Below, piece after piece: positions 49,800 through 54,692 of a stretch of 64,000 nt of DNA. Source of the stretch: Nitrososphaeria archaeon (GTDB lineage Archaea; Thermoproteota; Nitrososphaeria; JACIWG01). The translations under genes and the position numbers were made by a program. The stretch spans positions 288,001-352,000 of the forward strand of contig CAVVXT010000019.1 of NCBI GenBank assembly GCA_963752255.1. The letters are read 5' to 3'. The notes below the pieces were generated by a model. The model saw nothing but the letters and a program-made list of their open reading frames with translations. It made no database searches and had not been told where the DNA came from. The number at the start of each line of letters is the position of its first letter. The stretch's first letter is position 1.

Positions 49800-50504
49800 A
49801 TGAGGAGAGAATTTGTGAATAAGCTGACTCGTGATAAAATCGCGAAAATGGTTGATTACGCCTCCGCTCTAAACGCTAATGCTACAAAAGATGACATTAT
49901 CAGAAGCTGTGATGATGCTATTGAAAATAAATTTAACGCTGTCGCAGTAACCCCTGATTACGTTGCCCTTGCATCAAGACGACTTAAAGGCAGCGGAGTT
50001 AAAGTTCTAGCTGCCGTCGGCTTTCCTTGGGGTTCAAATGCGACTGAAACAAAGGTTGCAGAAACGAAACGTGCGATAGAGGATGGTGCTAAGGAAATCG
50101 ACATGGTCATTAACATAGGTTGGCTAAAGTCTGGAGACTACAAGTCCGTAGAAGACGACATCAGAGCGGTAGTCAAAGCCTCAAAGGAAGGAGGAGAAGA
50201 TATTATTGTAAAGGTTATCATAGAAACTGGCTACTTGACTGATGATGAAAAAATAAAGGCAAGTAGACTTATAAGAGACGCTGGAGCGGATTTTGTCAAG
50301 ACATGTACTGGAGTGAGTCCCGGCGCGGCAACAATACATGATATAGCCTTGATTTATAACGCAGTCGGAAAGGAAATAGGAGTAAAAGCCTCGGGTTCCG
50401 TAAATTACCTAGAAGATTTGCTACAACTGCATGGAGCCGGGGCAACAAGGTTCGGGTCTAGATCGGTGGCCTTGATAAACGCGTTGAAAAAGTTAGAGAA
50501 ATAA
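49800..50504 (+). CDS. deoC: Deoxyribose-phosphate aldolase
   Basis: VGFPWG, GAKEIDMVINIG, KVIIETG, GADFVKT, GVKASG, GATRFG. Confidence 0.93.
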   Translation: MRREFVNKLTRDKIAKMVDYASALNANATKDDIIRSCDDAIENKFNAVAVTPDYVALASRRLKGSGVKVLAAVGFPWGSNATETKVAETKRAIEDGAKEIDMVINIGWLKSGDYKSVEDDIRAVVKASKEGGEDIIVKVIIETGYLTDDEKIKASRLIRDAGADFVKTCTGVSPGAATIHDIALIYNAVGKEIGVKASGSVNYLEDLLQLHGAGATRFGSRSVALINALKKLEK

Positions 50505-50726
50505 CCGTTTGAAGAAAGCTTTCGCTATCTTCGAATCCGTTTATAAAAAACAATCCATGTTGAACAAGTAGAGCTGCTTAATTGATCAAAATCTGTGGCA
50601 TGCTTTTTGACTTGTACTTGACGTTACATCAGTGATTTACTGTTTAGGTCCTCATCCTCTTGATTATTATGTAGATAGAACTCCAAGTGTCAATGGAATT
50701 TCAAGGTTATTACCGTTTCTATTAAC

Positions 50727-50788
50727 GGTTTTTATGCATCTGTTGTGCATGGGTTAATGGTGATGTTGGATATTGCGTTCATTGTGCA
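50727..50788 (+). repeat. Left terminal inverted repeat
   Basis: Three TT(G/A)TGCA units; about 49/63 aligned columns identical to the reverse complement of 53455-53515 (manual alignment). Confidence 0.85.
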
Positions 50789-51006
50789 AAACATTCATGT
50801 ATAATTTACATTGTAAACTTAGCTTTTTTGATGTGGGGGTGCTACATAGCTTGATTGACTTTGTAAATCTACTTAACTTTACAAGTTTACAGATTTACAG
50901 TCGCTTTGCTTCATGGTATGATAACGATATACATATAGACCTTGACTGTATTAGTTAACGACGTACAACGACGTTAACGCCGTAACGTTAACGATGTATA
51001 AACGGT

Positions 51007-51083
51007 TGCGACAGTCGGGATTTGAACCCGAGTCTCCTGCCCTGGCAAAGGTGGCGCATTTGACCTTACTATGCTACTGTCGC
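51007..51083 (-). tRNA. tRNA-Gly(GCC)-like gene with aberrant anticodon arm
   Basis: GCGACAG/CTGTCGC acceptor stem plus A, GCAT/ATGC D-stem, TCGGG-TTCAAAT-CCCGA T-arm, 4-nt variable loop. Anticodon arm is 19 nt (CCACCTTTGCCAGGGCAGG) and poorly paired. Confidence 0.7.
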
Positions 51084-51106
51084 AACCTTTTCATTCTTAA
51101 CCATGA

Positions 51107-51121
51107 GATAAAAACCTTTCC
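51107..51121 (-). promoter_or_regulatory. BRE-TATA promoter of the tRNA-like gene
   Basis: Minus strand GGAAAGGTTTTTATC ending 24 nt upstream of tRNA position 1. Confidence 0.6.
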
Positions 51122-51184
51122 ATAATAATGATGAGACAAAAACCCTCAATTGCATTTAAATACCTGTAATTTAATTATTTTATA

Positions 51185-51355
51185 TTATTCTAACCTTTTA
51201 ACTTTCATAATTTTTCTGCTATCTTGGGTGATTATTTCCCAATCTAATACGTCTCCTATTTTTAAGTTCATTTCCTTTGCGATCTTTTCTGGTATAGTTG
51301 TTCTCATCGAAGGCGATATACTGCTTGCCTTTGCTATGGTTGATTTTTCTCCCAT
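51185..51355 (-). CDS. AbrB/MazE/SpoVT-family DNA-binding protein (56 aa, not in ORF track)
   Basis: MGEKSTIAKASSISPSMRTTIPEKIAKEMNLKIGDVLDWEIITQDSRKIMKVKRLE*. Confidence 0.85.
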   Translation of the reverse strand: MGEKSTIAKASSISPSMRTTIPEKIAKEMNLKIGDVLDWEIITQDSRKIMKVKRLE

Positions 51356-51357
51356 GT

Positions 51358-51450
51358 TATACCTTATCTACCTATATGTTTATATACTTTATCTACCTAT
51401 ATTACCTATACATATATATACCTATTATACCTATAGGTATGGTAGGTAGA
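51358..51450. promoter_or_regulatory. Divergent promoter region with multiple TACCTAT-like repeats
   Basis: TATCTACCTATA twice, further TACCTAT copies, and palindrome ATACCTATAGGTAT between the AbrB and transposase starts. Confidence 0.65.
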
Positions 51451-51455
51451 TTAAT

Positions 51456-52591
51456 ATGATGGATATGCGACCTAACAGAGCCCTACAGATATTAGCTCAA
51501 GAAGATAACGTAAAAAGAGTAGACGCTAACACATACAAAGTTAAATCACAATCGGGGAAAGGTATTTATCAAGTAATAAGAGTAGGTGAAGAATGGAAAT
51601 GCGAATGTGCAGATTACATCAAAAGGGGAATTGCATGCAAGCACATATATGCAGTTACTTTTTCACAGGCTCTAAGACAACAGGTTAGCTCAACAGAAAA
51701 GCTGGGAATAGAGCTTACAGAAAAACCCGATAACTGCATTTACTGTGACTCAGGAAATGTAGTCAAAAGGGGATATGCTTATGAGAAAGGAAAGAAGGCT
51801 CAGCGTTTCTGGTGTAAAGATTGCAATAAGACCTTTGTGCTGAATTACGGATTTAGGGGAATGAAGAACGATCCTAAGGTAATTACTGTGGCTTTAGATG
51901 CCTATTTTAGAGAAATGAGCCTTAGGGATGTCAGAGATCATCTGATACAATTTTACGGGGGTTAAAGTGCATTATGTAACAATTTTAAGATGGATTTCCA
52001 AATACACTAAGATCATAGGAGATTATGTTGATGGATTCGAACCTGAGGTAAGCGACACTTGGCACGTAGATGAAATGATGATCGACGTTGAAGGAAAGAA
52101 GCAATGGCTCTGGAACGTCATGGACGATGACACACGCTTTCTTTTAGCAGAGCAGGATAAGCAGGAAAAGGGATGTGAGAAGTGCAAGGATACCTCTGCA
52201 TGACGCACAAGATAGAGCTGGGATAAGACTGAGATATGTGGTAACTGATGGATTAAAAGCCTATCCTGATGCAATAACGAAGGAATTTTATACTGTGGCT
52301 AATCCAAAAACCAAGCACGTGAGATTACCGAGTATAAGGGAAAGACCAAACAACAATATAATTGAAAGACTACATGGAACAATAAGAGAGAGAAATAAGG
52401 TTCAAAGAGGATTAAAGGAAGGGGCATCAACCAACATAGCTGAGGGACAGAGGATATTCTACAATTTCATAAGAGGACACATGGGAATAGACGAAGAAAA
52501 GACACCAGCGGAAAAAGCGGGAATAAGACTCAAATTGGAAGGAAACAAATGGATGGAACTAATAAAAAAGGCGACCGCAACACAATTTTAA
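51456..52591 (+). CDS. IS6/IS240-like DDE transposase with N-terminal SWIM and Zn-ribbon; frameshifts at about 51960 and 52155
   Basis: CEC...CKH (SWIM), CIYC...CKDC, SLRDV..HL...TILRWI (HTH), WHVDE, VTDG, NNIIERLHGTIRER, YNFIRGH, TPAE. Confidence 0.9.
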
Positions 52592-52605
52592 CAAGTGGTT
52601 CTCAT

Positions 52606-53277
52606 CTATTGTTCTTGATTCTTGGTGAGTAACTGCGTTCTTCTTTTCCTTAAACTAATTCCCAAAGCGATTGAGCTTAATATTATGGCTACGACCGCCA
52701 GAATCGTGCTAAGTTGTGTGAATGAATTCATAAGCAAAGAGCCTATTGAGGGTTGAGATTCTGGGCTAATGAAAGTAGGTCTGAAAGTTGCCCAAACATC
52801 GCTTGAATTTACTTTCCCATTCTTTAGTTGTTCTTCGATATGCACGATTGGACTAAACCATCCGAGCCTTGCTTGTCCCTCACTGAGACCTACATCCTTA
52901 TCAAAGACCCTAATAGGCGGCATCGTTGTGCTGTACCCACTACCAATCACTGAAAGTTTTACATCTTGGGGTATCGGGGGGGTGCGATATAAGGCAGAGG
53001 GAGTGGAAATGTCAAGCAGAATGGACGTGACTCGTGTTTCAACAACATCAGTCCCAAAGGACTTCACAGTGAATGAAATCGGAATCGTGTAGAATTCACC
53101 AGTAACAAATGTTACGGGGCAATCAAAATTAAATTCGTAAACAGCCCCATTATTACTTGTTACATCAGATACAGTAGTACTCCAACCAGCTTGGGTCGCA
53201 TATGAACTACTCGGTAATAGAAACAACAATAATACAACGCATATAATTATGGAATAACCAATAGGACGAGTCATCAT
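52606..53277 (-). CDS. Hypothetical exported protein with signal peptide and C-terminal TM anchor (transposon cargo)
   Basis: N-terminal hydrophobic signal, S/T-rich beta region, C-terminal TM followed by RKRR. Confidence 0.75.
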   Translation of the reverse strand: MMTRPIGYSIIICVVLLLFLLPSSSYATQAGWSTTVSDVTSNNGAVYEFNFDCPVTFVTGEFYTIPISFTVKSFGTDVVETRVTSILLDISTPSALYRTPPIPQDVKLSVIGSGYSTTMPPIRVFDKDVGLSEGQARLGWFSPIVHIEEQLKNGKVNSSDVWATFRPTFISPESQPSIGSLLMNSFTQLSTILAVVAIILSSIALGISLRKRRTQLLTKNQEQ

Positions 53278-53454
53278 TTTAAACTAAAAAGCCTAAACTT
53301 ATATATAAAGATATACATAAATATAAAATGATAATTTTTAAGAAGAATCAATATTATCAAAATCAAGTCAAAAAATAAAAAACAAGAGCACACGATTTAT
53401 CAATATGACTGATATTCATAGGTCGTATAAGACTTGTCATAACCTTTTGAACCA

Positions 53455-53515
53455 TGCACAACAACGCAACACCAACATTTTCCTAAACCCTATGCACAAT
53501 GGATGCACAAGAACC
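53455..53515 (-). repeat. Right terminal inverted repeat
   Basis: Reverse complement GGTTCTTGTGCATCCATTGTGCATAGGG...GTTGTGCA. Confidence 0.85.
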
Positions 53516-53630
53516 CTATTAACTGTTATAGTTACACTTTGGCCTACTGAAAGTATGTAAGCCAATAAGTAAACAGTTGTTTTCTTTTAAATAGTCAATA
53601 GTTAAATAGAAACTTCCCTTAACTGAATAT

Positions 53631-54692
53631 ATGCTAGGGTTGGCGCATTATCCTGAAGGCGAATTAAGGCTCTTAAATACGGAGGAACCTAAAATCGGAA
53701 AGAACCCTTACGCACCCAACGACACGATTTTGGAGATAAAATACTGTGGAGTCTGCGGCACCGATGTGAAATTCTGGAAAGGGAAAGGTAAGATAATGGG
53801 GCCGGAGAAGCCGGTTGTGACAGGCCACGAGATATCAGCGGTCATAAAAGACGTAGGCGAAAATGTCGAAGGTTTCAGGAAAGGGGACAGAGTCGTCGCT
53901 GAAATAGTCACATTCTTTTGTGGCCGATGCATAAACTGTAAGCAGGGAAAGGTTAACATCTGTTGCAACATCCCCCACAGAGAACAGAGAGTCTACTTTA
54001 CAACCGGGGGAGGATTTGCTAAATATGCTGCTTGGCCCTCTTATTGCTTGCATAGATTACCCGATGAAATATCTCTTGAAGAAGCGTCCCTGATTGAGAC
54101 GACCGCAGGTAGCGTTCACGCGCTAATTGAGAGAGCTAACCTTACTGCAGGTGAATCCATAATAATCTTCGGCCCAGGTGCAAGGGGGCTTGTAATGCTG
54201 CAGGTCGCAAAGTCACTCGGTGCATACCCGATAATTGTGGCCGGTACGACTGCCGATGAAGTAAAAAGGCTCAAGATGGCTAAAGAGCTTGGAGCAGACG
54301 AGGTTCTGAACGTCGAGAAAGAGGATGTAAAAAAGGCTGTGAAATCTTACACGAAAAATTGGGGCGCGGACGTAGTTATGGAGTGCGCAGGAAGCCCAGA
54401 AGCGGTTCTGCAAGGTATCAGGTCGGTTAGACCAGGGGGCAGGATGATATTGTCAGGTGGTGGAACTGTTACGCTGGATACGGGGGACTTGATCGAAAAA
54501 GAGATGTCGTTAATTGGAGAAGTTTCGCATATATGGACTTCTTGGGAGACAGCCATCACACTTGTCAAAAGTGGTAAAGTAAAGCTTAAGCCTCTAATCT
54601 CACATATTTTTCCTCTGGCCAGCTGGGAGGAAGCGTTCCGCACAGCCGCAGACAACAGAGCATCTTTGAAGGTTCTCATCAGACCAGAATAG
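53631..54692 (+). CDS. Zinc-dependent medium-chain alcohol dehydrogenase (sorbitol/threonine DH-like)
   Basis: CGTD, GHE, CGRCINC..G..NIC, GPGARG, LKVLIRP. Confidence 0.92.
   Translation: MLGLAHYPEGELRLLNTEEPKIGKNPYAPNDTILEIKYCGVCGTDVKFWKGKGKIMGPEKPVVTGHEISAVIKDVGENVEGFRKGDRVVAEIVTFFCGRCINCKQGKVNICCNIPHREQRVYFTTGGGFAKYAAWPSYCLHRLPDEISLEEASLIETTAGSVHALIERANLTAGESIIIFGPGARGLVMLQVAKSLGAYPIIVAGTTADEVKRLKMAKELGADEVLNVEKEDVKKAVKSYTKNWGADVVMECAGSPEAVLQGIRSVRPGGRMILSGGGTVTLDTGDLIEKEMSLIGEVSHIWTSWETAITLVKSGKVKLKPLISHIFPLASWEEAFRTAADNRASLKVLIRPE

Follow-up and report, generated by a model that had tools for sequence, protein, structure and literature searches.

The IS6 family of insertion sequences (ISs), as portrayed in the accessible parts of its reviews, consists of elements of 0.7-0.9 kb with terminal repeats of 15-20 bp, GG tips and an 8-bp target duplication. 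Within the same text, zinc-finger extensions of the transposase are described only for Clostridial clades, the archaeal members are short, and a single member carries a passenger gene. IS6 elements are usually viewed as minimal, one-gene ISs, with cargo moved only as pseudo-compound pairs. Here we describe a four-gene element of 2789 bp at positions 50727-53515 of a 64-kb stretch of DNA from a Nitrososphaeria archaeon (hereafter the window, G000:C19:288001-352000). We read it, with a probability of roughly 85%, as a non-composite (unit) transposon whose family is archaeal and related to IS6. An earlier note, made from the letters of this DNA, had called it IS6-like: a precisely bounded transposon that has one transposase and is flanked by an 8-bp duplication, a description now borne out by protein profiles, catalytic residues and an empty site; the traits it gave as established for IS6 (short ends, small size, a transposase only) agree with the reviews, which do list the one member with a passenger gene.

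Boundaries, empty site and terminal repeats

The 8-bp sequence CTATTAAC stands in two perfect copies at 50719-50726 and 53516-53523, as the earlier note had pointed out. Logan contigs of two sequencing runs, X1 (peat) and X2 (soil metagenome), were compared with window positions 50300-53900. A contig of X2 (record 9; 544 nt, depth 7.4) covers positions 50369 to 50718 and resumes at 53516, so that exactly 2797 bp are missing, with 8 letters compatible with either side of the joint. In this contig deoC is followed by one CTATTAAC and then by the dehydrogenase gene, which is the empty site that had been predicted (deoC, one copy of the repeat, zinc-dependent alcohol dehydrogenase). Its flanks are 94-96% identical to those of the window, with 21 and 7 differing letters, and its source is, therefore, a relative rather than the same strain. 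These results demonstrate that the element was inserted as one 2789-bp piece between deoC and the gene for the Zn-dependent alcohol dehydrogenase, and that 8 bp of the target were duplicated. The features of the locus are listed below with their window coordinates.

50719..50726, no strand: left target-site duplication, 8 bp, CTATTAAC, read directly and present as a single copy in the empty-site contig
50727..50789, plus strand: left terminal inverted repeat, composed of a terminal site (50727-50750) and a subterminal site (about 50772-50789)
51004..51084, minus strand: tRNA-Gly(GCC)-like gene (ARAGORN; Rfam tRNA 48.5 bits, cut-off 29)
51185..51355, minus strand: 56-aa protein of the AbrB/MazE fold (SpoVT/AbrB-type), divergent from the transposase (PF04014, 26.4 bits, cut-off 24.7)
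51356..51455, no strand: control region that separates the divergent AbrB and transposase genes, with six exact TACCTAT units, one of them inverted; likely operator and promoter
51456..52591, plus strand: transposase pseudogene with SWIM zinc finger, four-Cys zinc ribbon, helix-turn-helix (HTH) and IS6/IS240-type DDE domain (Pfam, tblastn)
52606..53277, minus strand: cargo gene for a 223-aa protein of unassigned family, found as an open reading frame (ORF), in which a signal peptide and a C-terminal membrane anchor are apparent by eye
53354..53515, minus strand: right terminal 162 bp, comprising the upstream region of the cargo gene and the right inverted repeat, terminal site 53492-53515 and subterminal site about 53454-53471
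53516..53523, no strand: right target-site duplication, 8 bp, CTATTAAC, read directly and placed by the empty-site joint

In a genome of the same genus (G001), deoC and the dehydrogenase gene lie 322 bp apart and the element is absent; the junction is unreadable there because the middle of the spacer is too diverged to align with the window flanks. As a separate observation, the spacer (window 50505-50718 plus 53524-53630, compared with G001:C4:220738-221061) exists as two mutually unalignable alleles, and run X2 holds both, the G001-like one (record 10) and the window-like empty one (record 9). From run X1 came only one flank contig and some short stretches of the element, about 90% identical, and no conclusion was drawn from them.

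The left end (position 50727) starts with GGTTTTTATGCATC and the right end (53515), taken as its reverse complement, with GGTTCTTGTGCATC; in a longer reading they run GGTTTTTATGCATCTGTTGTGCAT... and GGTTCTTGTGCATCCATTGTGCAT..., respectively. The ends open with an IS6-like GGTTCT motif, and the tips, GGTTTTTATGCA and GGTTCTTGTGCA, are a variant of the IS6 terminal motif, GG with a cTGTt-type sequence. Aligned with each other, the two ends agree in 48 of 62 columns and form imperfect inverted repeats of about 62 bp, beyond the short 15-20 bp that characterize IS6. Each contains three T[AG]TGCA units, and the GG-initiated repeats with three units per end that the earlier note had recognized are thus as it described them; elsewhere in the 2.1-Mb genome, no stretch of 70 nt contains three of these units. 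The terminal site is repeated subterminally with an 11/18 match, at an offset of 39 nt in the left end and 38 in the right, and a more apt description of each end is a pair of sites, terminal and subterminal, each about 20 bp long and offset by 38-39 nt. A search of the genome with an end profile returned one further copy only, a solo right-end remnant on contig C7. A solo match of 34 nt, 97% identical to the tip of the window left end, was also observed in the same-genus genome (L017:7980-8012; G001:C16:34978-35011), and the 16-kb stretch examined around it gave no transposase match.

The transposase and its relatives in archaea

The transposase gene is distributed over three frames (51456-51965, 51967-52203 and 52175-52591). 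When the intact 375-aa relative P0001 was aligned with it by tblastn, identities of 78-84% were obtained in frames +3, +1 and +2, and because the match is spread over three frames, two single-base shifts must break the gene; one of them falls within a run of G. Pfam identified a SWIM domain (PF04434) and DDE_Tnp_IS240 (PF13610) in the translated gene. Intact relatives of 370 aa each, one from the same genome (contig C7) and one from G001, scored 58-61.9 bits with PF13610 (cut-off 27) and 120-121.2 bits with the NCBIfam profile transpos_IS6, of which positions 1-200 of 202 were covered. In these proteins the SWIM finger occupies residues 47-71 and an IS1/IS1595-type four-Cys zinc domain (NF050000/NF048018) residues 92-126. 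Residue conservation was read from an alignment of 11 full-length proteins, an alignment that included the window fragments being too loose for pattern scanning. The residues D204, D263, E302 and R309 (E+7) are invariant in the 11 sequences, the SWIM pattern CxC..CxH and the CxxC..CxxC pattern (C93, C96, C119 and C122) are conserved across them, and the same motifs are found in the window frames. The divergent SWIM/Zn-ribbon/DDE transposase proposed earlier holds with respect to its domains and conserved residues, but the gene is not intact in this copy, which carries two frameshifts.

A SWIM-bearing transposase of the Mutator-like/IS256 type was also considered and was ruled out: the NCBIfam profile transpos_IS256 gave only 22.4 bits (cut-off 150), with no match to an IS256/MULE-type (Mutator-like element) DDE core, and the SWIM domain here lies N-terminal to an IS6 core. 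The nearest annotated plasmid relatives are Clostridial IS6/ISCpe7 transposases with 27-29% identity over residues 73-359, the ISCpe7 match starting at 75. Since the match begins after residue 72, the SWIM part is excluded from it. Identities of 27-29% to annotated ISCpe7-type proteins lie at the bottom of the 24-91% range among ten long bacterial transposases, a comparison that is pairwise only. The element is best seen as an extended form of IS6, with the long Clostridial ISCpe7 group as its apparent nearest neighbour, and not as a class of its own; the distinct class of archaeal transposons put forward by the earlier note is better read in this way.

Relatives of the transposase gave 497 matches in genomes (one per species) and 255 in JGI metagenomes, under host titles that include Bathyarchaeia, Nitrososphaeria, Methanoperedens, Methanocellaceae, Hadarchaeota, Thermoplasmatota and Asgard metagenome-assembled genomes (MAGs), as well as a few MAGs labelled bacterial. 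We examined 160 loci, 80 kept from the genome scan and 80 from the metagenome scan, and scored a locus as bounded when an exact 8-bp direct repeat surrounded the transposase and the adjoining 24 nt were inverted at at least 16 of 24 positions. Ninety-four of the 160 loci were bounded, compared with 4 of 160 in a reverse-only control, and 48 of the 66 unbounded loci have less than 1.5 kb on at least one side. The ends of the bounded loci start with GG in 175 of 188 cases and with GGTTCTG in 133 of 188. Bounded elements measure 1983-7951 bp (median 3264), and the inverted ends have a median aligned extent of 59 nt (48 bounded genome loci). The two-site arrangement was scored by seeking terminal nucleotides 7-24 within nucleotides 27-100 of the same end at at least 11 of 18 positions; a subterminal repeat was found in 107 of 190 ends versus 71 of 950 interior controls, with the strongest cases at an offset of about 38 nt. 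Because the terminal sequence recurs inside the same end, we regard these as two-site ends. Homologous transposases elsewhere are likewise accompanied by long ends with several sites, by 8-bp duplications, by cargo and by a small DNA-binding gene in divergent orientation, with 94 of 160 loci bounded and 106 of 160 carrying the regulator gene described below. One of the loci (L059) lies in a complete Atabeyarchaeia genome, for which its authors report, in the available portion of their text, five IS-like transposons and defence islands.

Three further relatives, which stand outside the 160 scanned loci, were found in the host genome and in G001, and both genomes include bounded copies that carry cargo.

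G000:C7:40337-46527 (partly locus L003): 6191 bp, 52-bp perfect inverted ends
G000:C19:19396-24286: 4891 bp, 52-bp perfect ends, duplication CAGAAAAG
L019:6679-9278, in G001:C2: bounded, duplication CTTTTTCA

The element on contig C7 has no target duplication (CTCGGTCT versus TGGAAACG) and encodes a 370-aa transposase in intact form, alongside a divergently oriented AbrB gene and large ORFs that look, by eye, restriction-modification-like. Fifteen bp inside its right end lies the window-type right-end remnant, 162 bp long (G000:C7:46298-46460) and 90% identical to 53354-53515. No window-type left end was found on C7, and the locus is a different 6.2-kb relative with a nested 162-bp remnant. 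The C19 element has a frameshifted transposase and, by eye, ORFs resembling ribbon-helix-helix (RHH) and ParB proteins; the tip of another element abuts it at C19:19388. The sole intact family enzymes of the host genome are about 40% identical to the window transposase, and the ends of their elements differ. Because of its two frameshifts, and because no intact cognate enzyme is present in the genome, the window copy is probably now immobile.

Putative regulator gene, tRNA-like gene and cargo

The AbrB protein that the earlier note had placed inside the element is supported by its PF04014 match. The motif TACCTAT has 16 matches in the window, compared with 7.3 expected per 64 kb, and 6 of them lie in 51369-51439, within the AbrB-transposase spacer; none was found elsewhere in the element, ends included. 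The control region is conserved in the related element L100. A value of 37% identity from a global DNA alignment of the left part of the window element with L100 was discarded as meaningless, the tRNA-like gene having been misplaced in it. A scan for bacterial-type promoters and terminators, a method ill-suited to archaea, gave sites no commoner than in shuffled sequences.

A first AbrB profile matched only 11 of 80 loci, and clustering then revealed other folds at the same place. In all, 106 of the 160 loci have, upstream of the transposase and divergent from it, a small gene for a DNA-binding protein; these genes form six clusters, and 8 loci have less than 350 bp of upstream sequence.

RHH, first type: 32 loci of 160
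RHH, second type: 20 loci of 160
AbrB/MazE type 1, the same gene type as in the window: 21 loci of 160
AbrB/MazE type 2: 13 loci of 160
Possible third AbrB-like type, with no significant Pfam match: 3 loci of 160
Zn-ribbon: 17 loci of 160

Pfam confirmed representatives of the RHH, MazE/AbrB and Zn-ribbon clusters, and the totals are 37 AbrB-like, 52 RHH and 17 Zn-ribbon loci. The suggestion that the element carries its own AbrB regulator thus stands as regards a divergent gene slot (106 of 160 relatives) and fails as regards AbrB as the defining type (only 37 of 160). The mean count of TACCTA/TAGGTA in the spacer is 2.8 with AbrB type 1 and 3.4 with AbrB type 2, compared with 0.15 and 0.28 with the two RHH types. 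Because these counts track the regulator type and the motif is absent from the ends, a repressor of the divergent promoters fits the data, rather than an accessory protein that binds the ends; the fit is one of correlation. The self-regulation named in the earlier note is, by these operator-like repeats, a putative trait.

The tRNA-Gly-like gene noted earlier was recovered by ARAGORN as Gly(GCC) and scored well above the Rfam cut-off. Its acceptor and T arms are canonical; the anticodon stem, which contains an extra pair as well as A.A and C.C mismatches, departs from the 5-bp anticodon stem and 7-nt loop of a canonical tRNA; relatives in the clade have 6-nt loops. The host possesses a canonical tRNA-Gly(GCC) at C14:91666-91744. 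In the window and in L021, L022, L100 and L101, the space that separates the left end from the regulator contains a tRNA-like gene on the same strand as the regulator; these are 4 different elements, as L100 and L101 are two copies of one. Rfam scores are 42.3 bits for L021 and 35.2 bits for L022; the genes of L100 and L101 fall under the cut-off and were detected by ARAGORN and a profile. That profile gave no match in the related L139 (which has an RHH regulator) and L109. Window-type ends (GGTTCTTGTGCAT...TGTGCAT plus subterminal GTTGCGT...TGTGCAT) are shared by the window element, L100, L139 and L022.

In the five sequences, G1-C72, C2-G71, G3-C70, A73 and the T arm are kept. Two-sided changes are seen in acceptor pairs 4-73, 5-72 and 6-71 and in T-stem pair 54-68, among 4 independent sequences, which are few for firm covariation. 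The anticodon arm is aberrant in all five, with mismatches or loops of 6 or 9 nt, and GCC or ACC is retained. By eye, no TATA-like box was seen upstream of the gene in L021, L022 and L100, and a run of T follows it in L100 and L101, which suggests co-transcription with the regulator. Enrichment of tRNAs across the family was not supported: ARAGORN matches occurred in 7 of the 94 bounded elements (about 320 kb), which by a rough estimate is about the genomic tRNA density. Well-scoring tRNAs do occur inside bounded elements of a different sub-clade, L161 (3974-4143; 56.5 and 49.4 bits) and L102 (2518-2602; 53.6 bits), so tRNA cargo recurs sporadically in the family. The earlier idea that tRNA-like cargo is a trait of the whole class was not sustained, because the gene holds a conserved place only in the 4 elements of the window's own small clade. 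Two side observations concern the surroundings of these genes. A canonical tRNA-Val(TAC) (Rfam 61 bits) lies at L021:9338-9412, 140 bp downstream of the transposase of this window-type relative, whose ends were not found, and may be a host target or further cargo. In the window, three GTTAAC(G) palindromes lie within 40 bp at 50954-50992, directly 3' of the tRNA-like gene on its strand.

The exported, membrane-anchored protein reported earlier corresponds to the 223-aa ORF, which has no Pfam or NCBIfam match; its look-alikes in the Atlas are archaeal hypothetical proteins. A chromosomal paralogue of 220 aa (G000:C3:165115-165866; L002:1481-2143) shows 79% nucleotide identity that includes part of the upstream region, and is a possible source of the captured gene. 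In L100, the gene adjoining the right end differs (a 241-aa ORF on the opposite strand), and thus the exported protein would be variable cargo. A further ORF of at least 110 aa (mechanical ORFs rather than gene calls) was found in 91 of the 94 bounded relatives. When the 150 longest of 193 such ORFs were scanned against Pfam (E <= 1e-5), only 36 families were matched overall, among them the following.

N6_Mtase: 7 ORFs
UPF0020 methyltransferase: 5 ORFs
N6_N4_Mtase: 4 ORFs
Eco57I: 4 ORFs
Proteasome: 4 ORFs
Methylase_S: 3 ORFs
GmrSD_N: 2 ORFs
ParB_N: 2 ORFs
PIN: 2 ORFs
HSDR_N: 2 ORFs
HEPN: 1 ORF
TIR: 1 ORF

The cargo of the relatives often looks like restriction-modification or defence genes.

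Proposed mechanism, alternatives and known systems

We envision that the transposase binds terminal and subterminal sites at both ends and that the target would be attacked with an 8-bp stagger, in a replicative copy-in like that of IS26 and other IS6 members; by the same analogy, the cointegrate would then be resolved by homologous recombination of the host. From their anatomy, the extra zinc modules and the double sites may serve end recognition and synapsis. The divergently encoded AbrB protein may bind the TACCTAT repeats of the 100-bp spacer and repress transcription from its own promoter as well as from the transposase promoter. The tRNA-like gene would belong to the conserved left-hand core of the clade and is probably co-transcribed with the AbrB gene.

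One could argue that this DNA did not move as one unit and is instead a small IS beside unrelated genes with chance repeats, an integrative element that targets tRNA genes, or an assembly artefact. Classical IS6 members, in the review text available, are under 1 kb with 15-20-bp ends, and an internal tRNA-like gene could suggest an element of the integrase type. However, the element has no integrase gene, and no inverted-repeat pair closer to the transposase was present among the 25 longest of the 171 pairs found. The end motif cluster is unique in the genome, and the same outer-end architecture recurs at 94 of 160 loci versus 4 of 160 in the control. The empty site, in which precisely the 2797 bp between the duplication copies are omitted, already contradicts a denial of one-unit movement, and we consider the idea extremely improbable. 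Another view is that the small AbrB gene is no transposon regulator at all and is an orphan antitoxin-like remnant or a cargo regulator of host genes. Its Pfam match is the MazE antitoxin family, RHH and AbrB folds are typical of antitoxin DNA-binding domains, a PIN domain occurs in 2 of the 150 cargo ORFs scanned, and toxin-antitoxin modules are known inside Tn3-family transposons from the portions of that literature at hand. We find this unlikely, in view of the lack of a toxin-sized partner gene adjoining it in the window, its invariably divergent position within about 90-160 bp of the transposase start, where different folds replace one another, and spacer repeats that vary with the regulator type and, for TACCTAT, are confined to the spacer within the element.

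The tRNA-like gene is more finely balanced. There is a little less than an even chance that it is a decaying passenger, a captured copy of tRNA-Gly(GCC) drifting to a pseudogene with no role in the element. The anticodon-arm defects differ from element to element: the window gene has two mismatches, those of L022 and L100 have a 6-nt loop, and that of L021 has a weak D stem. This diversity, the sub-threshold scores of L100 and L101, the host's own canonical gene, the lack of a match in L139 and L109, and the near-genomic density of ARAGORN matches are all consistent with drift. On the other hand, the gene keeps its position and strand across 4 different elements with transposases that share only about 55-70% identity, pairing in the acceptor and T stems is maintained through changes on both sides, and G1-C72, C2-G71, G3-C70, A73 and the T loop are invariant, whereas a drifting pseudogene would be expected to lose its acceptor stem as fast as its anticodon stem. 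It is, tentatively, possible that the gene is a functional module of this transposon clade. G1-C72, C2-G71, G3-C70, A73 and an xCC loop make up a glycine identity set, and all of these are conserved in the tRNA-like genes. The more specific proposal, an RNA that has lost the ability to decode and keeps a processable, possibly glycine-chargeable acceptor/T minihelix, is doubtful; such an RNA might be cut by RNase P/Z and thereby define where the regulator transcript ends on its 3' side, or it might serve outside the ribosome as a glycyl carrier or as a decoy. If true, transposon control would be linked to a tRNA-like RNA that is mobile and non-proteinogenic. The conserved tRNA-like gene of this one clade is an oddity open to direct testing.

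Several points weigh against reading the window element as a unit transposon of an IS6-related family. The window fragments score 21.3 and 25.6 bits with PF13610, under the cut-off of 27, and the best transpos_IS6 score of the intact relatives, 121.2 bits, falls slightly short of the cut-off of 125. The frameshifts may be real decay or a homopolymer assembly error, the X1 and X2 contigs giving no cover at either site. Agreement between the two ends is limited to about 77%. The genome holds only one full copy of the window-type element, and hence there is no direct sign of recent activity here. Eighteen of the 66 unbounded relatives have at least 1.5 kb on both sides and yet show no duplication with inverted ends. 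Replicative transposition, AbrB binding and two-site end binding come from analogy or correlation, and the archaeal and long members of the family are, in the accessible review text, without experimental data.

If the IS6-related reading is correct, these unit transposons, self-contained and 2-8 kb long, move by means of an IS6-type enzyme. With long two-site ends, a swappable regulator and often defence-like cargo, they could be a means by which genes flow among uncultured archaea. Their natural variation may help to show how the IS6 core is elaborated by extra zinc modules and multi-site ends, and they bear on whether archaeal and "long" IS6 members belong in the IS6 family at all. No description of this architecture was found in the parts available of the literature on IS6, archaeal transposons and the thaumarchaeal and Asgard mobilomes, a comparison made with that literature and outside ISfinder entries. 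Aloposons, the cargo transposons of Asgard archaea, are unrelated, having, in the text consulted, giant genes and integration at tRNA sites. The thaumarchaeal elements of Krupovic 2019 include 13 listed IS families and, in the text available, no such architecture; the mentions of "IS6" there are passages on IS200/IS605, IS607 and IS630, and no IS6-family element is shown.

Tn3 elements make 5-bp duplications and have 38-bp ends and a dedicated resolvase; none of these was seen in the window element. The Tn3 family offers an analogy only, with a single DDE transposase of an unrelated family, long ends, replicative movement, cargo, and regulator or antitoxin-like modules in the transposition module, as far as the available sources describe it. 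Closer are the short archaeal IS6 elements (clades a-d/Ai-Aiv, e.g. ISPfu1), which share archaeal hosts, ends of at least 18 bp and many GG starts; in the available descriptions, by which alone they are set apart here, they are 700-750 bp long with short transposases and no zinc-finger extension. ISDsp3 of Dehalococcoides is likewise an IS6-type element with a non-transposase gene, but the accessible record gives one copy of a bacterial element of about 1.5-1.7 kb with one hypothetical gene, whereas here an extra ORF is found in nearly all of the bounded relatives. The ISCpe7 group (clade h, Varani 2021; clade VII, Harmer and Hall 2019) shares the layout of Zn-ribbon, HTH and DDE domain and is comparable in its transposases of 340-350 aa; its members, as presented in the sections available, are bacterial and 1.2-1.3 kb long, with no SWIM domain, and a partner regulator, cargo and long two-part ends are not described in them. 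With the IS6/IS26 family (IS26, IS257 and IS6100), the window element has in common an IS240/IS6-type DDE domain with K/R at E+7, GG tips, a cTGTt-like motif and an 8-bp duplication. Known members, in the portions of the reviews at hand, have one gene, 15-20-bp ends and 0.7-0.9 kb, or up to about 1.7 kb for the long ones; in contrast, the window element has four genes in 2.8 kb, among them a partner regulator and cargo; its two-part ends extend over about 52-62 bp, its transposase has two additional zinc modules at the N terminus, its relatives measure 2-8 kb, and its identity to IS26-type enzymes is about 26%. The archaeal IS6 branch with cargo, a regulator and two-part ends is real and widespread and has, apparently, escaped description so far, and it is built on the IS6 plan.

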